This document shows positions 16,749 to 48,066 of a stretch of DNA of 64,000 nt, in pieces (positions within the stretch are counted from its first letter, which is position 1; each line of letters starts with the position of its first letter). Origin of the DNA: Candidatus Kaiserbacteria bacterium CG10_big_fil_rev_8_21_14_0_10_49_17 (GTDB lineage Bacteria > Patescibacteriota > Minisyncoccia > Phycocordibacterales > JABMNX01); the NCBI GenBank assembly GCA_002778575.1, contig PFBJ01000003.1, positions 11,057 to 75,056 of the forward strand, given 5' to 3'. Made by a program: the position numbers and the translations under genes. Under the pieces are notes generated by a model. It did no database searches. It was not told the origin of the DNA and worked only from the letters and a program-made list of their open reading frames with translations.

Positions 16749-18623
16749 TTATTCCAGTACTGCCTTTACGCGGCGCACGCCAGCTGACGATGATTCCTCC
16801 TTCACGATTTTAAATACGCCGGTAATTTCATTCGTATTTGATACATGCGGTCCACCGCAGAGCTCGCGAGACCACACCACCCCATTGGCGTCTCGTAGCG
16901 TATACACTTTAACTACCTCCGGATATTTCTCCCAGAAGCTCCCCTCGACGCCCTCAGCTTTTGCTTGTTCCTTTGGCATTTCCTCAATTGTCATTTCTGC
17001 CTGCGCCTTGATTGCGTCATTGACATACTGTTCAACCTTATCGAGCGTCTCTCGGTCTACTTTTTCAGGATACGTAAAGTCAAAACGCGTACGTTCGGTA
17101 GTAATATTTGATCCCGCCTGGTGCACATCCTCACCGAGGTATTTTCGCAGTCCTGCAAGCAGTAGGTGTGTTGCGCTGTGGTACATGGTTGTCTTCTCTC
17201 CGCCGTCGGCGAGTCCGCCCTTAAATTTCTGCTCCGCTCCCGCACGCGAGAGCGCTTGGTGCTTCTCCATTTCGCTGCGAAACCCCTCCATATCGACAGT
17301 GATGCCCCTCTCAGCAGCAAGCTCGAGCGTCAGTTCAATTGGAAAACCGTGTGTTGTAAAGAGAACAAACGCATCACGTCCAGAAATATTCTCACCGGAG
17401 CGCTTTTCAAATTCTTTAAGTCCGCGCTCGACTGTTTTTCTGAATCGCGCCTCTTCTTCTTCAATATTTTTCTGTATTACGTCTTTCTGCGCGCGCAGAT
17501 TTGGATACTGCGCTTCGTACTGCTGTATCACAATTGGCACGAGAGTGTGGAGCGTATGCGGCTCCATTTCGAGCGTATCCATCTTCAGTACAGCTCTCCG
17601 CAGTAGCCGTCGAACAAAATACCCTTGCTCTGTATTTGACGGAACGACACCGTCTCCAATCATAAATACCGCCCCGCGAAAGTGGTCCGCAACAATTCGA
17701 AATGCCGCGCTTTCTTCCTCATTTTCACCGTACACTTTACCGGAAAGCGATTCGATTTCAGTAATAATGCCGTAGAGAGAGTCAATGCAAAACACATCTG
17801 AGACATCATTCGCAGCTGCAACAATTCGCTCGAGCCCTCCGCCGAAATCGACATTTTGCTGTGGCAGCTTTTCAAATGAACCGTCGCTTTTTTTAATGTA
17901 CTCCATAAAAACAGAGTTGCCGATTTCCATAAAACGCCCGCAATCGCAATTCGGGTGGCAGTGCTCGCCGAATGCCGTGTCGTGTGCTGTTCCAAAGTCA
18001 TAAAAAACCTCGGAATCCGGACCACCGGGCTCCCCCGCCGGCATTTTCTCCGGAGTCCCAGAGCGACTCCACCAATTTTTCTTTGCCTCATAGGCAAATA
18101 TGCGCTCCCCTTCCCGCATGCCGCGCGCATACCCGTCTGCCTCAGTTCCTATATCGACGGCAATCGCGTCAATTCCCTCTTCCTTAAAGATGCGCTTCCA
18201 TATCTCAATTGATTCTTCATCTTTTGTTATGCCGAGTTTCTCATCGCCGCTAAATACCGTGACGTAAAGTTTTTGCGGGTCAAGACCGATTTCCTTTGTA
18301 AGAAATTCAAAAAACCACGGTAACTGTTCTGACTTGAAATAGTCACCGAGCGACCAGTTGCCAAGCATTTCAAAAAAGGTTGTGTGGCGATTGTCACCAA
18401 CCTCTTCTATATCTTCTGCTCGAAATGATTTTTGTGAATCAACAAGACGCACACCGGATGGATGTTTTTCTCCCAGTAGGTACGGCAGAAGCGGCTGCAT
18501 GCCGGAACTGGTGAAAAGTGTTGTCGGATCATTCTCCGGCACGAGCGGCGCTGACGGTATTTCACTATGCTCTCGCGCTTTAAAAAATTCGAGATATGTG
18601 TGGCGAACTTCCGCTGTTGTCAT
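16749..18623 (-). CDS. alaS: alanine--tRNA ligase, short form (catalytic plus editing domains, no C-Ala domain)
   Basis: N-terminal AlaRS block FTSSGMQ...FEMLGNWSLGDYFK, editing HxxxH...CGGPH; start at MTTAEV gives ATGA overlap with upstream small gene. Confidence 0.9.
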   Translation of the reverse strand: MTTAEVRHTYLEFFKAREHSEIPSAPLVPENDPTTLFTSSGMQPLLPYLLGEKHPSGVRLVDSQKSFRAEDIEEVGDNRHTTFFEMLGNWSLGDYFKSEQLPWFFEFLTKEIGLDPQKLYVTVFSGDEKLGITKDEESIEIWKRIFKEEGIDAIAVDIGTEADGYARGMREGERIFAYEAKKNWWSRSGTPEKMPAGEPGGPDSEVFYDFGTAHDTAFGEHCHPNCDCGRFMEIGNSVFMEYIKKSDGSFEKLPQQNVDFGGGLERIVAAANDVSDVFCIDSLYGIITEIESLSGKVYGENEEESAAFRIVADHFRGAVFMIGDGVVPSNTEQGYFVRRLLRRAVLKMDTLEMEPHTLHTLVPIVIQQYEAQYPNLRAQKDVIQKNIEEEEARFRKTVERGLKEFEKRSGENISGRDAFVLFTTHGFPIELTLELAAERGITVDMEGFRSEMEKHQALSRAGAEQKFKGGLADGGEKTTMYHSATHLLLAGLRKYLGEDVHQAGSNITTERTRFDFTYPEKVDRETLDKVEQYVNDAIKAQAEMTIEEMPKEQAKAEGVEGSFWEKYPEVVKVYTLRDANGVVWSRELCGGPHVSNTNEITGVFKIVKEESSSAGVRRVKAVLE

Positions 18624-18877
18624 TGAATAATTTCTATTAGCTGAAATGCGCCAGAGCTCCACGGCGTAAAGCCGTAAAAGAGAACCTCAAGCGTATACCC
18701 AAGTACCATAAACAAAATACCAAGAAGCGCCAAATTTCTCTCTCGCCGCATTTCATTGAGCACCTTCCGGTCTATTCTGTGCTCTTTTACAATGCGCCAG
18801 TGCACCATTACGACCGTAAGGCCGAGTATAATCTTTCCGACAGTGCCTATGGTAAGTCCCCAAAATAGCAGTGACAT
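18620..18877 (-). CDS. small membrane protein (2 TM, 85 aa)
   Basis: two hydrophobic helices; stop overlaps alaS start (ATGA) indicating coupling. Confidence 0.55.
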   Translation of the reverse strand: MSLLFWGLTIGTVGKIILGLTVVMVHWRIVKEHRIDRKVLNEMRRERNLALLGILFMVLGYTLEVLFYGFTPWSSGAFQLIEIIQ

Positions 18878-42235: not shown

Positions 42236-42529
42236 CTACTCCTCTGAGAGGGCGAGTGCGGCATCGTAGTCATCGTTTGGCGCTAGCTTATTCGGCAATG
42301 CATGCCCGCACCGGACACAGCGGTGAATAAGTCTGTGCACACCTGCTTTCTGCTCTAGCGCAATAGGCTCCATCAGCCCGCCGCAATCAGATGCCCTGTC
42401 TCCTGGATGCACGTCAACATGTTTACTCCACAGACACGATGGGCAGTGATTCGTAAAACCGCTGCCAATAACACTTTCACCACAATGCTCACAGATGAAA
42501 TTTTCAACTGTTTTTGTAAAGCGCTTCAT
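42236..42529 (-). CDS. RNHCP-domain zinc-ribbon protein
   Basis: FTNHCPSCLWSKHVD plus CxxC...CxxC. Confidence 0.65.
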   Translation of the reverse strand: MKRFTKTVENFICEHCGESVIGSGFTNHCPSCLWSKHVDVHPGDRASDCGGLMEPIALEQKAGVHRLIHRCVRCGHALPNKLAPNDDYDAALALSEE

Positions 42530-42592
42530 ACTGCAATACTAGCCTTTCAATATGCTGAACAAAAAGGTCGCACACTGTGCGACCTTCTGAAA

Positions 42593-43615
42593 TTATTTTC
42601 GTAACTCCTCCTCTGTAGCTAACCGACGAGCTCCGACATGGAGACCCACGATTGCATCTCTTTCGGAAAGTCCGAGACGCCGTTTGTTGGAAATGTCGTA
42701 GACCCCCCCAACACTCTCGGAATGCTCCCCGTGAATGCCTCGAACCGAAAGTCCGAGGAGTTTTGCGAAATCATCAAGTTCGCCACTTTTCTCGAGCGCA
42801 GGGAGTTTCATATGGAAGCTCGCACGCATTGCCGTTCCAAGGTTTGTTGGACAACTTGAGAGGTATCCAAGCTGTTGTGTGTAGGCAAATGGGACGTTCT
42901 TTTCGATTTCAGAAATCGCACGTACCAGCCTGCTATAGACAGAGAGCAGGTCACCTCCCTGCTCAAGAGAGATAATACGAAGGTGATCTTCCTCATTCAC
43001 CCACACAATGAACTTCTTATCGTTTGAAAGAAAAATGCCGCGTCCTGCCGGCCAGTCCCGATTGACTCCTGCGCTCTCAAGGAAACGATCCCCTTGCTTG
43101 AAGAGCACGTGGTCTTCAATCAGTTTATTTCGTGTTTCCTCATCGAGATCTGCAAGCGAGTGATACGTGCCTGCCAAATCATCAGGAAGCTTTGAGAGAG
43201 CATCAACAACTCGCCGCTCAACTTCCAGACGCTCGTCTAGAGACATTCCTGGCGTTAGCGCAAAACCGTCAAGATTTCGCCCAACACGCGCGCGCGTTGA
43301 GATAACACGATCACGGTAAAGCTCAGCTCCGGTAAACTGCCCCGGCTTGATCGTCATATCCTGCGGGTGTGCAAGAGAATCAACATTTTCAATGTTGTGG
43401 TACTCCGCAATAATGGGACCAAAAAGACCCCAAAACACCTCGTACGATTCAGCATCCGGCGCATAGACGCCGATACTGCTGTCCGGATTTTCAACTCCAG
43501 AGCGTGTAATATCATCAAGGCTAAAGCCTCGATTCGTCTTCGCTCTTCGCAATTCGGATGCAACATCCTCGGTAAAATGCTTGGCTAGAAGTGATTGCTT
43601 GACTGGCATGTGCAT
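42593..43615 (-). CDS. ATP:guanido phosphotransferase, full-length arginine kinase-like (phosphagen kinase with N-terminal helical domain)
   Basis: active-site CPTNLGT, VWVNEEDHLRIIS, N-domain ESYEVFWGLFGPIIAEYH matching metazoan AK not McsB. Confidence 0.85.
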   Translation of the reverse strand: MHMPVKQSLLAKHFTEDVASELRRAKTNRGFSLDDITRSGVENPDSSIGVYAPDAESYEVFWGLFGPIIAEYHNIENVDSLAHPQDMTIKPGQFTGAELYRDRVISTRARVGRNLDGFALTPGMSLDERLEVERRVVDALSKLPDDLAGTYHSLADLDEETRNKLIEDHVLFKQGDRFLESAGVNRDWPAGRGIFLSNDKKFIVWVNEEDHLRIISLEQGGDLLSVYSRLVRAISEIEKNVPFAYTQQLGYLSSCPTNLGTAMRASFHMKLPALEKSGELDDFAKLLGLSVRGIHGEHSESVGGVYDISNKRRLGLSERDAIVGLHVGARRLATEEELRK

Positions 43616-43736
43616 AGGTTTTTTCCTTCTGATAAGTGACCACCGAAGAGTGTACAGTGTATGTGTCTATTTTTCAACTAAGCATCACTAAAATTAAAAA
43701 CCGCTCATGGTGGTGAGATGGGGATTTCTATTCCTC

Positions 43737-44414
43737 TTATTTAACCGCGCTTTCCTTTACCGAGGTGTAGAGAAAATACATGTATGCGACACTAAATGGC
43801 ACCACAAGTATTTGGATAACCACAGAGATTACCTGACCAAGTGCCGCATCCTTCGATGAGAAGAATGCACCAATTCCTCCAAGAATTCCCGATATAAGAA
43901 TAATTACAAGCATTCGGCCAAACACTGCCCACCACCGTCCTTTTACGTATGAATGGCTCTTTTTAAGGGCATCGACGCCTCGCTCACTTTCAAAGAGCAC
44001 AATAAAGACCGCGAGACTAAGATACACTGAGATAATAATTCCTGGAATAATAAGGAGAATAAATCCAACAACCTCAAGAAACCCTACAAGTATAGAAACC
44101 CATAGGAACGAAAGGAAAAGCGGAAATGCCTCTCTAAAATACGTAGTAATTTCTCTCTTCTCGCTATCTCCCACTGCTCGTATAATGGCGATACCTGCGA
44201 GAATCTGCAGAAACGCAAGTGCGAATACCCCGAGTACTGCAAAGAGAGTTATTGTACCTTTACCGCTCGGAAGAGTGACGCTCCCGAAACCAATAACAAG
44301 GGAGAGAAATGCCGGAATGGCAATAATGCCAATAAGAGTCCACAGACGCTCCCGAAACAGAAAAAGTGCTTGGCGCACGAGGTCGCGTACTGAAATTACA
44401 TTACTTTTTCCCAT
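43737..44414 (-). CDS. hypothetical integral membrane protein (6 TM)
   Basis: hydropathy; start moved to MGKSNV to avoid overlap. Confidence 0.5.
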   Translation of the reverse strand: MGKSNVISVRDLVRQALFLFRERLWTLIGIIAIPAFLSLVIGFGSVTLPSGKGTITLFAVLGVFALAFLQILAGIAIIRAVGDSEKREITTYFREAFPLFLSFLWVSILVGFLEVVGFILLIIPGIIISVYLSLAVFIVLFESERGVDALKKSHSYVKGRWWAVFGRMLVIILISGILGGIGAFFSSKDAALGQVISVVIQILVVPFSVAYMYFLYTSVKESAVK

Positions 44415-44463
44415 ACACTTTAGTATAACAAAAAAAGCACCCCGCGCTACGCGCGGGGCTATG

Positions 44464-45279
44464 CTATTTGGGAACAAAAAGTTTTTGGAATTCGCAAAAC
44501 GGCATACCGTAATTGAAGCCGGGGTCAAAGTCTTGCAGACGTTTTTCTCTATCGTTGTATCTGACATTCTGATTGAAGTCGATGAATGCAACGAGCGCAA
44601 AACGGCCATTTTGAGCACTGTGCGGTGTCGGTCGCACGCAGTGGCACAGTGCCTTTAGTGCGCCGCCGGAGCGGTACTGCAATCCCATGCTTGGAAAAAT
44701 GACTGTTTTTTCTCCAGAGAGCGTCCACGGGTGCCAGTGCCGATCAAATCCGTAATATTCCCCTCCTTCCTGATTTTCATAAAGATGCAAGGTAAAATCG
44801 CCTCGATCCACATGCGGGTACGCAAGCATTGCCTCGCCGAAATAGTGAAGGTAGCGAAACGTCCAGCGCTTGTGGGAGGCACGCACTTCACTTTCAAAGC
44901 CAGAAAGATTGAATTCCTTCTCGACTGCATGCGCAAATTCCCCAACAAGCGGTACCGACTCTCTAATGAGGTTAGAGACGGCATCAATGAAGCGGAACCC
45001 CCTTTTCTCATGAACTCCGTCGGCACAGCTCCACAAAACCGGCAACTGCTCCTCAACAACGTGGAACATCTCTTTCGAGTCAGAGCGCGTTCCTGCATCA
45101 TTGCGGAGCATATACCCAAAGTCGTTGGCTCGATCACCCTTAGAAAACTGGCGCTTTTTCTCTTCGGGCAATGTGCAGAAAGCCTGCCACGAAGCGACCG
45201 CCTCTTCAACCGAAGCGCGGAGTGCTGTGGGGTACGGTACCTCCACCATCCCCTTCGTTGCCAAAGCAGACACATCCAT
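44464..45279 (-). CDS. 2-oxoglutarate/Fe(II)-dependent oxygenase, IPNS/PcbC-like
   Basis: HVD...H facial triad (YPHVDRGDF, LCHCV) and RFALVAF (RxS-like); strong GGAGGA RBS before MDVSAL. Confidence 0.6.
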   Translation of the reverse strand: MDVSALATKGMVEVPYPTALRASVEEAVASWQAFCTLPEEKKRQFSKGDRANDFGYMLRNDAGTRSDSKEMFHVVEEQLPVLWSCADGVHEKRGFRFIDAVSNLIRESVPLVGEFAHAVEKEFNLSGFESEVRASHKRWTFRYLHYFGEAMLAYPHVDRGDFTLHLYENQEGGEYYGFDRHWHPWTLSGEKTVIFPSMGLQYRSGGALKALCHCVRPTPHSAQNGRFALVAFIDFNQNVRYNDREKRLQDFDPGFNYGMPFCEFQKLFVPK

Positions 45280-45398
45280 TTTTTCCTCCACTGCTGATTT
45301 TCTTTTTGTAGAGTACCAAAATACGCGATGGAAAGAAGATTGACACAAATGAAAGATGGCGTACTCTTCTCATGGATACCAACTACTGGAGAGTAAAG

Positions 45399-46118
45399 AT
45401 GGGTTTTCGTTTGCAGTTGCCGATTTACCTTCCGACTCAGGGAGATGTATTGCCGTCAACACATCTGGCGAAACACGAGTTCTATGTCTGGCAACTTATT
45501 CGCTCACTAAGCGGAGCTGTGCGGTGGCCTGGAGCACACGGCGACTCACCAACACCGTCACAGACAGCAGACAATTGTATGTTTTCCTGGATACTGGGAA
45601 AATATCAAGAGATGTTGCAAAGCATTACTCGAGATGACATTGCGCCTCCGTTTCGCATTGATATCAAACCAAAGCCTCACGAATATAATGACCGGAGCTT
45701 AAAGGAGTTGTATGCTCAGTCGGTACGAGTGCTTATGCACGCCGGTTACTCTGGATGCATTGACCCTGTTCGCATCGGGACAGAAGATACATATCCAATG
45801 CCTGATGTAATGCTTGATCACAACCAAGCACTCGAGCAACTTGATTGGAAGCGGCTGCGCTTCGCCTACCGCTTCAGCAATGCTCCAGCATTTACTGATG
45901 ATCTGCCATTACTGTGGGTGCCAACTCGGCGCGTTGCCCGATGGTGGGAAGAAATGATTGATGGGAAACCATCAAAAACGCAAGAAATTCTAAAGTCAGA
46001 TGCACTGTCCTTACGAATTGCTCGCGCCAGACTCGCCTACATGAAAGAGTGGGGTAAAGTTAGAGCCCGTGTTCTTCTCGATTTTCATCCGATTTTCACC
46101 CTCTGTATGGTGCCCTAA
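45399..46118 (+). CDS. hypothetical protein
   Basis: ORF with GGAG RBS at second ATG (alternative start 45372); strong terminator downstream. Confidence 0.5.
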   Translation: MGFRLQLPIYLPTQGDVLPSTHLAKHEFYVWQLIRSLSGAVRWPGAHGDSPTPSQTADNCMFSWILGKYQEMLQSITRDDIAPPFRIDIKPKPHEYNDRSLKELYAQSVRVLMHAGYSGCIDPVRIGTEDTYPMPDVMLDHNQALEQLDWKRLRFAYRFSNAPAFTDDLPLLWVPTRRVARWWEEMIDGKPSKTQEILKSDALSLRIARARLAYMKEWGKVRARVLLDFHPIFTLCMVP

Positions 46119-46129
46119 AAATATTCTAG

Positions 46130-46159
46130 ATCAGCCCGCATTCAGCGGGCTGATTTTTT
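46130..46159 (+). terminator. rho-independent terminator
   Basis: ATCAGCCCGC-attca-GCGGGCTGAT 10-bp stem plus T6. Confidence 0.8.
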
Positions 46160-46250
46160 CTGCACTCACGCATCACCTTAACGTTGCGTCGAGATGTGCC
46201 CGACAGCCTGCGCAGGCATCTTGCAAAATACCCCTGCCTCACATCACTAC

Positions 46251-46283
46251 AAAAACATCACACTATTTCTGTGTGATGTTTTT
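46251..46283. terminator. bidirectional terminator hairpin
   Basis: AAAACATCACAC-tatttct-GTGTGATGTTTT 12-bp perfect stem flanked by A and T runs; terminates the minus-strand tRNA transcript. Confidence 0.7.
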
Positions 46284-46292
46284 GTGACGATG

Positions 46293-46329
46293 TGGACCAA
46301 ACCGGAATTGAGCCAGCGACCTCCTGAGT
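46293..46329 (-). pseudogene. tRNA 3'-half remnant (anticodon-loop position 37 to discriminator), 31/37 identical to 3' half of adjacent tRNA-Ala
   Basis: ACTCAGGAGGTCGCTGGCTCAATTCCGGTTTGGTCCA; no 5' half or foldable anticodon stem. Confidence 0.6.
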
Positions 46330-46330
46330 A

Positions 46331-46376
46331 ATTGCACCCTAACAAAATGAGATGATCGAGTTTGATTACACTGTGG
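46331..46376. repeat. left arm of about 46-bp imperfect inverted repeat flanking tRNA-Ala
   Basis: reverse complement of 46449-46496 with two substitutions and a short indel. Confidence 0.6.
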
Positions 46377-46447
46377 ACCCGACTGGAATCGAACCAGCGA
46401 CCTCCTGAGTGCAAAACAGGTGCTCTAGCCAACTGAGCTACGGGCCC
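46374..46447 (-). tRNA. tRNA-Ala (anticodon UGC)
   Basis: cloverleaf folds; anticodon loop UUUGCAC; G3:U70 alanine identity pair; TTCGATT T-loop; no encoded CCA. Confidence 0.9.
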
Positions 46448-46448
46448 A

Positions 46449-46496
46449 CACTGCAATCAAACAATTTTGTTCATCTCATTTTGTTAATGTGCAACG
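46449..46496. repeat. right arm of inverted repeat flanking tRNA-Ala (also the tRNA leader region)
   Basis: CACACTGCAATCAAAC...CATCTCATTTTGTTAATGTGCAA. Confidence 0.6.
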
Positions 46497-46506
46497 CAAA
46501 ACGTTC

Positions 46507-46586
46507 GACAGTCTCCCGGACTGTCTCACCCCTAGCCAATGAAGCCACGGGCCATCTACATAAATGAACTTACAACACGTAAGTTC
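46507..46586 (-). other. two perfect hairpins (GACAGTC-tcccg-GACTGTC; GAACTTAC-aacac-GTAAGTTC) plus TATAAT box between ddl and tRNA-Ala
   Basis: seen directly; possible ddl terminator plus tRNA promoter/leader structure. Confidence 0.4.
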
Positions 46587-46605
46587 ACACGAGTGAAATT
46601 ATACC

Positions 46606-47574
46606 CTACTTCCCCCTTCTGGCAAGTACAATGACATGCTCGAGCAATTCAGGGAGCGAGCTTCCTGCTGCAGTGAGCGCTTGTACAAGCGGCGCCTCTT
46701 GGGAAAGTGACGGAAGCGTGTTGGTCTCCAAAAAATACACTCCTCGCGGGGAGACGATAAAATCTGATCGGGAGTAATGCCGGGCGCCGAGCGCGCGATG
46801 TATGCAAAGTGCCGCATCCTGCAGTTCTTGTTTTATGCCGTGTGAAAATGTGCTTGGACAGTGTCCAATTGCCAAGCCGCAGCCTTTAAGCTCTGGTGTG
46901 ATTATCATCTCTCCCTGCGGGCGCACAATTTCAACCGGAAGCGTTTGGTAGTACTCCTCACCTCGAAAACCATCAATGACGCCCACGGTTGCCTCCGGAC
47001 CTCGGATATACTCCTCAATCAGCACCTGATTTGAGTGCGTGAAGGCCCGCGCAATACTCTCTGCCAGATCGGTATACCCGTAGGCAACTGAAGTACCTAT
47101 AGATGATCCGCGAGCAACCGGTTTTACCACCACCGGCATTGGGAAACTTCGAAATAAATCAAGTAGTCGCTTTTCATAGTCTTCTGAGACTCGAAATACG
47201 ATACACTGTGGTGTCCGCAACCCCGCTTCTACCGCACACTCTTTTGCCCGCACCTTGTGCATTGCTAGTGCTGATGCAAATGCATCCGAGCCGGTATATG
47301 GTACAGAAAGCTTTTCAAGAATTCGCTGTACAGTCCCATCCTCCCCGTATTCACCACAAAGAGCATTGAGCGCAACATCAACACCATGAAGTGCCCGCTC
47401 TGGAGTAGTTGGCACGCCGCGCATATGCCACACACCATCTCGGTCAATAAAGATATCGCGTACCTGATACCAATCGGTAGTAAGTGAACGGAGTACGTGC
47501 GCACCGCTTCGAAGCGACGTATCGTATTCACTTGAAGGTCCTCCTCGAAGAACGCCTACAGAGAGCTTTGCCAT
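46606..47574 (-). CDS. ddl: D-alanine--D-alanine ligase
   Basis: ATP-grasp; N-terminal VGVLRGGPSSEY; start moved to MAKLSV. Confidence 0.9.
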   Translation of the reverse strand: MAKLSVGVLRGGPSSEYDTSLRSGAHVLRSLTTDWYQVRDIFIDRDGVWHMRGVPTTPERALHGVDVALNALCGEYGEDGTVQRILEKLSVPYTGSDAFASALAMHKVRAKECAVEAGLRTPQCIVFRVSEDYEKRLLDLFRSFPMPVVVKPVARGSSIGTSVAYGYTDLAESIARAFTHSNQVLIEEYIRGPEATVGVIDGFRGEEYYQTLPVEIVRPQGEMIITPELKGCGLAIGHCPSTFSHGIKQELQDAALCIHRALGARHYSRSDFIVSPRGVYFLETNTLPSLSQEAPLVQALTAAGSSLPELLEHVIVLARRGK

Positions 47575-47628: not shown

Positions 47629-48066
47629 TCACCAATCCTTGAGTACTTTTCCAATACTCTGGGTTATCTCTAGAAATTGTGAGACCACTGTTGTGTAGGC
47701 ATCTTCGATTTCGGCCTCAATATACTCAGAAATAGTCTCTTCCCGTAACTGATCTTCGGAAAGAACAAGATAACGTTCTCTCTGTGGGACTCCCGCAATT
47801 ATTCCCTTGGCCGGGGAGTATAAATCCTCATCAAGCCCATAATTCGGTGGATGCGGAATAAGACTTTGCAAGCTCACGACAACCTTAAACTCCCAATGTG
47901 ACGCCCAATCAGACCAATGCTGCCGATCCGGGCGACGAATGTGGATCACCTCTACGCTTTTGCTTTTCGTTTCTGGAATACACGCAAGCGCATCCCCCGC
48001 GGCTGCAAAACAAATGCCGGGAAATTCGCTTTTTCGCTCCCACTCCACAACGATTTTCGCACTCAT
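47629..48066 (-). CDS. hypothetical protein
   Basis: ORF only. Confidence 0.45.
   Translation of the reverse strand: MSAKIVVEWERKSEFPGICFAAAGDALACIPETKSKSVEVIHIRRPDRQHWSDWASHWEFKVVVSLQSLIPHPPNYGLDEDLYSPAKGIIAGVPQRERYLVLSEDQLREETISEYIEAEIEDAYTTVVSQFLEITQSIGKVLKDW

Follow-up and report, generated by a model that had tools for sequence, protein, structure and literature searches.

A tRNA-Ala gene nested between inverted arms and the two halves of an older copy in a Kaiserbacteria genome

How does a bacterial tRNA gene come to stand between two inverted repeats which are themselves bounded by the halves of another tRNA gene of the same kind, and what keeps such an arrangement in place? The question is raised by a stretch of 64,000 nt (the window; contig PFBJ01000003.1 of assembly GCA_002778575.1, positions 11,057 to 75,056 of the forward strand) from Candidatus Kaiserbacteria bacterium CG10_big_fil_rev_8_21_14_0_10_49_17, in which a gene for tRNA-Ala(UGC) downstream of ddl is framed in this way. 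The locus is an unusual local rearrangement and not the scar of an integrated island. The explanation that we favour, to which we give about an even chance, is that an ancestral tRNA-Ala gene was split by a cassette consisting of arm, tRNA and arm, and that the arms would be a leader-trailer helix selected at the level of RNA. The nesting recurs in a second lineage, at a conservation well above neutral and with substitutions that preserve the pairing of the arms.

The window holds a single tRNA gene, called by Rfam at 46374-46447 on the minus strand (66.9 bits) and by ARAGORN at 46373-46447 on the same strand. This intact tRNA-Ala(UGC) measures 74 nt to the discriminator A73, has the pair G3.U70 and does not encode CCA. 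As the sequence-only reading of this DNA had reported, it is enclosed by inverted repeats of about 46 nt: the leader arm (46448-46494, minus strand) would provide the 5' strand of the helix and the trailer arm (46330-46373, minus strand) the 3' strand. A local alignment of the leader with the reverse complement of the trailer scores 25.5, whereas 2000 shuffles gave a mean of 7.5 (standard deviation 1.6) and a maximum of 17. The inverted repeats I1 (46332-46367 / 46459-46494, 36 nt, 81%) and I3 (46360-46381 / 46441-46462) are one arm pair that extends into the acceptor stem, and the core sequence of the arms is TAACAAAATGAGATGA. The arms had been said to differ by two substitutions and a short indel, which understated their divergence, as there are four substituted positions (one A/G, one G/G and two that are G.U in RNA) and an internal loop of 8 nt versus 4 nt.

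Outside the arms lie the pieces of an older tRNA-Ala. The 3' remnant beyond the trailer arm, also noticed before, was confirmed at 46293-46329 (minus strand; blastn-short E = 5e-5) as nt 37-73, or, together with a following CA, at 46291-46329 with 34/39 positions identical; it is spaced 44 nt from the tRNA. No tool calls it as a tRNA, including Rfam at E<=5 and ARAGORN with introns allowed, and a second complete tRNA, which the sequence-only reading had named as speaking against itself, is called by neither program: with introns of up to 1 kb, ARAGORN finds only the inner gene. A matching 5' remnant upstream was absent from that reading. Its larger piece (46532-46553, minus strand, repeat family D2) corresponds to nt 2-23, that is the 5' strand of the acceptor stem and the D arm, with 18/22 positions identical to the tRNA, and only 10 of about 3000 random segments of the window align to the tRNA as well. 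After some 29 unrelated bases follows GTTTTGC (46496-46502, minus strand), a 7/7 match to nt 30-36 in the anticodon stem and loop, which is conserved in the relative described below and ends the 5' half one base before the leader arm. No further tRNA fragments occur elsewhere in the 64-kb window.

The upstream piece thus stops at nt 36 and the downstream one takes up the sequence at nt 37, each adjoining the outer end of one arm, so that the order on the minus strand is promoter, small hairpin, 5' half, leader arm, intact tRNA, trailer arm, 3' half and hairpin. Since the halves are complementary at 36/37 and each abuts an arm, a single inserted cassette of arm, tRNA and arm, about 170 bp long, accounts for all of these parts. 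The 5' remnant starts 52 nt past the ddl stop codon, and the plain tRNA-Ala of an outgroup, L065, whose Ddl is 56% identical, starts 46 nt past it. The inner tRNA, the remnants and this outgroup tRNA have a GGCTAG D-loop and U31.U39 in common, and A41 is common to the inner copy and the 3' remnant, whereas the outgroup has C41. As these characters indicate, the inner tRNA is a local paralogue of its target and not an import. Acceptor-stem pairing between the outer remnants is broken in sequence; this, together with the ARAGORN search with introns and Rfam in E-value mode, excludes that the outer halves are a functional intron-bearing or split tRNA. A tandem triplication followed by decay was likewise discarded: by eye the arms are unlike either tRNA half, and their polarity, A-rich on the 5' side and T-rich on the 3' side, fits a tRNA within a hairpin and not a tRNA between two terminators. 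The whole structure is identical in two further assemblies of the strain, from ENA (L062) and JGI (L063), which, with the same architecture in the relative, rules out an assembly artefact.

The signals for transcription surround the nested array. A sigma-70-type promoter (TTGCCA, 16-nt spacer, TATAAT) overlaps the end of ddl at 46598-46625 on the minus strand and agrees with the consensus at 11/12 positions; the relative has the same two hexamers, against an identity of only about 45% at neutral sites. Between promoter and 5' remnant lies a leader hairpin of 9 bp (TGAACTTAC, loop GTGTT, GTAAGTTCA; 46565-46587, minus strand), which is present in the predicted minimum-free-energy fold and whose stem is identical in the relative, with differences in loop bases only. 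The terminator that had been placed past the 3' remnant stands as a hairpin with 24-nt arms and an A-tract and T-tract (46240-46294, inverted repeat I2, 46240-46263 / 46271-46294, 88% complementary), which overlaps the 3' end of the remnant; it was not called by the terminator scan. In relatives, the same design of A-tract, stem and T-tract occurs directly after tRNA-Ala, and the stem here takes in the CCAC end of the tRNA; this hairpin is probably the terminator of the ancestral tRNA gene.

Comparison with the relative, L064, provides the second lineage. Its Ddl and UvrC are each 85% identical to those of the window, and it has the same promoter, 5' remnant, arms and tRNA; at its 5' remnant, GGGCCCGTAGCT is identical to tRNA nt 1-12. 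Four-fold degenerate sites of ddl and uvrC are 44-46% identical between the two, which places neutral DNA close to saturation. Against this background, identity amounts to 100% in the tRNA, 87% in the leader arm (with its differences compensated or located in the internal loop), 78% in the trailer arm, 86% in the promoter and leader hairpin and 75% in the 5' remnant with its spacer. It falls to 52%, the random level, in all sequence past the trailer arm, so that the 3' remnant is not conserved in L064. Third positions of ddl are identical at a rate of 0.33-0.57 per 30-codon window; values of 0.65-0.70 are confined to the final 10-20 codons, where the promoter lies. Without a rise elsewhere, recent transfer does not account for the conservation. 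We rejected recent horizontal transfer or co-conversion by homing on these low third positions and on the patchiness of the non-coding conservation, which is high in the helix and low in the internal loop. Beyond L064, scans of genomes and metagenomes and three more context look-ups returned plain tRNA-Ala loci only.

A likely reason why the arms stay alike emerges when they are read as RNA. The leader and trailer are predicted to form a helix of 37 pairs with a perfect run of 17 bp, stacked on the acceptor stem in both lineages; pairing starts between A73 and U(-1), and 37/37 pairs are kept in each lineage (74/74 paired cells). With the 3' partners displaced by 1-3 columns, no more than 33-44% of the cells remain paired. 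Six bases are substituted in paired columns, all of them preserving pairing, namely by the compensatory double changes UA to CG and AU to GC, and by UA to UG and GU to GC; all remaining differences between the arms of the two lineages fall within the internal loop. As this pattern suggests, the arms are kept because they pair. They pair most probably in RNA, since their G.U positions lie on the tRNA strand, where no A/C mismatches occur, whereas the other strand would have A/C mismatches.

Folding predictions agree with a stable structure. The precursor fold, with the cloverleaf at the tip of a long stem, reaches z = -10.3 in the window and -7.3 in L064, far better than shuffled sequences, and the leader-trailer duplex by itself reaches -6.5 and -9.9, respectively, whereas 35 other tRNA loci range from -2.4 to +2.3. 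In silico, the pairs of the acceptor stem in a 356-nt transcript have a mean probability of 0.99 with native arms and 0.68 with shuffled arms, and 13/40 arm shuffles bring it below 0.5. The helix is absent at more than 30 other Patescibacteria tRNA-Ala loci and at the tRNA-Gln of the same genome, which rules out that it is a general habit of the genome or of the phylum.

The favoured explanation begins with an ancestral tRNA-Ala(UGC) just downstream of ddl, equipped with its own promoter and terminator hairpin, which would have been split between anticodon-loop nt 36 and 37 by the cassette, which is some 170 bp long and carries a local paralogue of that tRNA between inverted repeats of about 46 nt. 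The outer halves would be dead, and the inner copy would be the working gene; the old promoter would give rise to a precursor of about 350 nt, whose two arms would join in a leader-trailer helix of 37 bp that stacks on the acceptor stem. Kept by selection, the helix would most likely play the part that such helices play in rRNA precursors. By clamping both ends of the tRNA it would favour correct folding inside a long, cluttered transcript, and it would offer a double-stranded cleavage site of the RNase III type, freeing a short pre-tRNA that would then be processed by RNase P, 3' trimming (RNase Z) and CCA addition. We infer an RNA-level role of the arms, the nuclease and the origin of the cassette, and, by analogy with rRNA maturation, the succession of RNase III-type cleavage, RNase P and RNase Z action and CCA addition.

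Precursors of rRNA offer the nearest analogy. In the pre-rRNA of bacteria and archaea, complementary segments on either side of the mature RNA likewise pair over more than 20 bp and so bring its two ends together, and compensatory changes maintain the pairing. This helix clamps both mature RNA ends and is cut by RNase III; in E. coli, the biogenesis of 30S subunits requires at least 17 bp of it even where RNase III is absent (PMC11404451). Unlike those helices, the one described here encloses one 74-nt tRNA instead of 16S or 23S rRNA, and is lineage-specific and not found across phyla. The arms may hence work like a processing helix of the rRNA type, yet they fall outside that family, the enclosed RNA being tRNA-Ala. 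In the literature we found no described leader-trailer helix of a bacterial tRNA and no nested tRNA. What appears peculiar is that, in two lineages, the nested self-replacement of a tRNA gene goes together with a leader-trailer helix of the kind known from rRNA. With a case that rests on two lineages, we would regard it for now as a curiosity rather than as a general principle. If the arms are confirmed as an RNA helix, a bacterial tRNA would have the end-clamping design known from rRNA precursors, which would bear on tRNA processing in bacteria of the candidate phyla radiation (CPR) with their reduced sets of RNases.

Several points weigh against the reading of a split gene with a selected processing helix. 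The nested structure is known from two lineages only, and in a covariation shuffle control, which had just two sequences to work with, the observed value was reached in 113/500 cases; concerted repair of a DNA palindrome could be another source of matched double changes. We know of no mechanism that would place a copy of a tRNA, newly flanked by inverted repeats, within the anticodon loop of that same tRNA gene. As long as the helix stays closed, RNase P would be expected to be impeded by the pairs that U(-1) forms with A73 and G(-2) with the next base, and a motif search of the window found no RNase III signature. The simulations, moreover, give no sign that the remnants cause misfolding, as random flanks do worse (0.37); we consequently dropped the idea that the helix is a specific guard against the decoy halves, shuffled flanks upsetting the predicted acceptor stem more than the real remnants. 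Finally, the 5' remnant with its spacer (46496-46553) is 75% identical to L064 where neutral sites are about 45% identical, which is too high for a dead pseudogene. It includes a conserved block, GGGGTGAGA.AGTC.GGGAGAC, that bears no likeness to tRNA, and this leader may have a function of its own.

Among the other ways to arrive at such a locus, one would have the helix around tRNA-Ala come first and the 5' and 3' fragments arise through two later partial duplications, for instance by amplification and collapse like that caused by the phage endonuclease SegB, after breaks made by GIY-YIG enzymes. Open reading frames (ORFs) of the GIY-YIG type occur at the same locus in three Patescibacteria lineages (L003, L008 and L064), with a partial tRNA-Ala-like copy beside the ORF in the former two and with the ORF inside the 5' remnant in the third, and SegB itself, a GIY-YIG protein that cleaves tRNA genes internally, drives segmental amplification at a tRNA locus (PMC13096335). 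In L064 the 5' remnant is kept and the 3' remnant lost or degraded, so that the two have different histories. However, the fragments are exactly complementary, one ending at nt 36 and the other starting at nt 37, and each abuts an arm, a coincidence that a single insertion does not need, and the window itself has no GIY-YIG ORF; we hold this succession of events to be unlikely, albeit worth bearing in mind. A rather improbable alternative, in our estimation, is a non-autonomous element resembling a miniature inverted-repeat transposable element (MITE), whose terminal inverted repeats would be the 46-bp arms, acting at the DNA level, and whose cargo would be tRNA-Ala; landing in the resident anticodon loop, it would have survived by bringing a replacement tRNA. 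The inverted ends do start exactly at the insertion junctions (TTGCAC...GTGCAA), a degenerate direct repeat of the anticodon-loop core may be present there (TTTTGCG|TTGCAC ... GTGCAA|TT--ACTCAGG), and L064 holds a genuine terminal-inverted-repeat element at the same locus, with an 18-bp inverted repeat, a 10-bp direct repeat and a GIY-YIG ORF. Yet the candidate target duplication (TTGCA core) is too short and mutated to score, no second copy of an arm exists in the 64-kb window or in 90 fetched loci, including about 9 kb past the window in the same strain (L086), and there is no transposase. The site is the same in both lineages, the cargo is a local paralogue of the target, and the evolution of the arms, with its G.U intermediates, preserves pairing rather than sequence. 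An arm 16-mer has nine matches in viral contigs, which lack extended similarity next to them and are due to chance; as the neighbouring ORFs have no PHROG match either, a phage origin was discarded. A variant in which arm-tRNA-arm would be a self-complementing mobile palindromic cassette that targets tRNA-Ala anticodon loops, and would be tolerated by means of a replacement tRNA in its own processing helix, we consider a long shot; if true, it would be a transposon-like analogue of the integrative elements that rebuild the 3' end of a tRNA.

The sequence-only reading had taken the 3' half-copy for the footprint of an integrase and had marked 41.6-46.3 kb as a possible insertion. On this view the half-copy would be an attR-type scar of insertion into tRNA-Ala, with the nearby kinase/oxygenase block as the island or its remains. 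A direct repeat that lies downstream of an intact tRNA and copies it from the anticodon loop as far as the discriminator is indeed the classical att duplication, as left by tRNA-targeted integrative elements (attL/attR), and in L065 an exact 18-nt copy of the tRNA 3' end with a second terminator would fit a decayed integrative element at tRNA-Ala. Such elements, though, do not match the locus otherwise: the spacing between tRNA and repeat is only 44 nt, no integrase or recombinase is encoded among the neighbouring ORFs (38.5-51 kb scanned), there is no distal repeat in the window, and the GC content is flat across the locus at about 0.47-0.50. The oxygenase gene follows tRNA-Ala in L064 too (79% identity), and only about 45.33-46.29 kb is specific to the window. 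The inverted arms are left unexplained, as is the 5' half upstream, which an integrase model does not predict; moreover, the intact gene here is a complete nested copy, whereas integrative elements leave a hybrid gene with its 5' part from the host and its 3' part from the element. Already largely refuted, the integrase scar appears very improbable to us. As partial tRNA copies beside tRNA genes are routinely taken as integrase scars in annotation, the locus shows another route to that signature. Hardly credible is that the inverted repeats act in DNA as an invertible segment or as a cruciform-forming recombination site, which had also been suggested and for which their long arms with a perfect 17-bp core speak. 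One orientation is found in all three full assemblies of the strain and in L064, no invertase gene is nearby, and an inversion would part the tRNA from its only detected promoter. A long central spacer disfavours cruciform extrusion, and here it exceeds 75 nt; the G.U-type positions of the arms would be mismatches in DNA. Of the integration or rearrangement hotspot that had been proposed, the rearrangement stands, given the nested tRNA, the GIY-YIG element of L064, two indels and partial copies elsewhere, and the integrase scar and the invertible segment are not supported.

The favoured splitting of a tRNA-Ala gene by a copy of itself also invites comparison with insertions that are spliced or cut from RNA. 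As in intron-containing tRNA genes, the insertion has clean junctions and interrupts the anticodon loop, here between nt 36 and 37, and in Patescibacteria group I introns are frequent in the anticodon loops of tRNA genes (PMC13011429). In contrast to intron-bearing tRNAs, the locus gives no group I signature or other intron family in Rfam at E<=5, no intron-bearing tRNA is predicted, and no bulge-helix-bulge motif, the mark of archaeal tRNA introns, was seen. A U typically precedes a 5' splice site (10.1101/2020.01.27.920355), whereas the base before the junction here is C36. With the intervening sequences and non-intron insertions of rRNA, including those of CPR bacteria, the cassette shares that a helix-forming insertion sits in the gene of a structured RNA in a reduced genome. 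Those insertions, however, are removed from an RNA that is still functional, whereas here the outer tRNA appears dead and the insert carries the functional RNA.

As to the source of the nested copy, GIY-YIG proteins deserve attention. In L064, an 89-aa GIY-YIG ORF lies inside the 5' remnant and is bounded by the 18-bp inverted repeat and by the 10-bp direct repeat GGCCCGTAGC (L064 2276-2574); a tblastn search found no such ORF in the window. Homologues in other Patescibacteria are 65-78% identical and lie between housekeeping genes, with inverted ends of about 20 bp (CCTGTACACACGAAATGACC ... GGTCATTTCGTGTGACAGG). The locus resembles in this respect the free-standing GIY-YIG homing endonucleases such as SegB of phages T4/T6, where a GIY-YIG ORF is located at or in tRNA genes with partial or duplicated copies around it, and SegB cuts within tRNA genes (PMC2330249). 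Unlike SegB, the ORFs considered here comprise only 84-111 aa, little more than the catalytic domain, are chromosomal in Patescibacteria, have inverted repeats of about 20 bp, and are lacking in the window. Among the insertions in CPR rRNA genes, only those other than group I or II introns code for GIY-YIG proteins (PMC11270868). Cutting by SegB and the non-intron GIY-YIG insertions of CPR together make double-strand-break repair a plausible source of the nested copy, which may, by this analogy, have originated in such repair at a locus visited by GIY-YIG elements. A causal link between the GIY-YIG ORFs and the nested tRNA is what we infer from these parallels.

The GIY-YIG ORFs are of interest in themselves. 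Those of 84-111 aa occur across Patescibacteria classes (L064, L075, L079 and L082; genes at about 1876-2211 and 2001-2279), with carA/carB, uvrB/murB and pyrD/glmS as neighbours. Their right inverted repeat overlaps conserved C-terminal codons, and in 2/3 contexts (L079 and L082) they sit exactly at the start codon of the downstream gene, with TATG on both sides. From their terminal inverted repeats, these small ORFs look like a family of mobile elements, of which we found no description in related literature; small elements of this kind would be a recurrent source of rearrangement at structured-RNA genes and operon junctions in Patescibacteria. At the ddl-tRNA-Ala locus itself, GIY-YIG ORFs 40-45% identical to that of L064 are found in L008 (8003-7603, minus strand) and L003 (5079-5330). 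They start after a tRNA-Ala-like 5' fragment, within 16 nt of it in L008 and immediately in L003, which comprises nt 1 to about 56 with an altered, palindromic anticodon arm (TCCCGATGTRCATCGGGA) and is nearly identical between these two distant genomes; the ORF of L008 runs into a complete tRNA-Ala(UGC).

Partial copies of tRNA-Ala were observed at two more such loci. In L065, an exact 18-nt copy of the tRNA-Ala 3' end (2409-2426) lies about 140 nt downstream of the gene, with a second terminator hairpin after it; its appearance is that of a scar left by an integrative element that was small or has decayed. In L006 (5441-5668), the first 55 nt of tRNA-Ala stand before a gap of 100 N and the full tRNA after it; either scaffolding has created this artefact, or part of the tRNA is truly duplicated at this locus as well. 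A Logan contig of the window's own strain (L061, window 42372-46398) ends inside the tRNA at 46398, in the stretch repeated in the 3' remnant, and the repeat, or heterogeneity among strains, may have broken the assembly there.

Upstream, the neighbour of tRNA-Ala(UGC) is conserved. The ddl gene (46606-47574, minus strand) encodes a D-Ala-D-Ala ligase of 322 aa with a Pfam match, 100% identical to P0001. The tRNA-Ala(UGC) gene lies no more than about 4 kb downstream of ddl in 11 of the 14 Patescibacteria loci fetched via Ddl, and the linkage was also found in several metagenome loci and in three more outgroups. The pairing thus extends over many Patescibacteria lineages (L001-L013, L034-L065 and L088-L090) whose Ddl proteins are only about 45-55% identical, and joins the gene for an alanine-ligating enzyme and an alanine tRNA in a conserved gene pairing.

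Two gene-sized indels separate the lineage of the window from L064. Downstream of the nested array, a segment at 45335-46239 (plus strand) is absent from L064, where homology is regained only some 50 nt ahead of the oxygenase gene. The DNA specific to the window contains one ORF, on the strand opposite to the tRNA (45372-46118, plus strand, 248 aa), which has no Pfam, NCBIfam or PHROG match and is absent at the orthologous position of L064. Within the same segment lies a GC-rich hairpin with a T-run (46130-46161, inverted repeat I6). Between uvrC and ddl, an ORF of 145 aa (47629-48066) likewise has no family match and is absent at the orthologous L064 position.

Two further genes of the window may be mentioned. 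An ATP:guanido phosphotransferase of 340 aa (42593-43615, minus strand) has both the N-terminal PF02807 and the catalytic PF00217 domain; it is of the phosphagen/arginine-kinase type, uncommon in bacteria and unexpected for a CPR genome, and not of the McsB type. The alanyl-tRNA synthetase (16749-18662, minus strand) is a short form of 637 aa, and its best NCBIfam match is PRK01584, a model of 595 positions, where the standard bacterial alaS model has 847.

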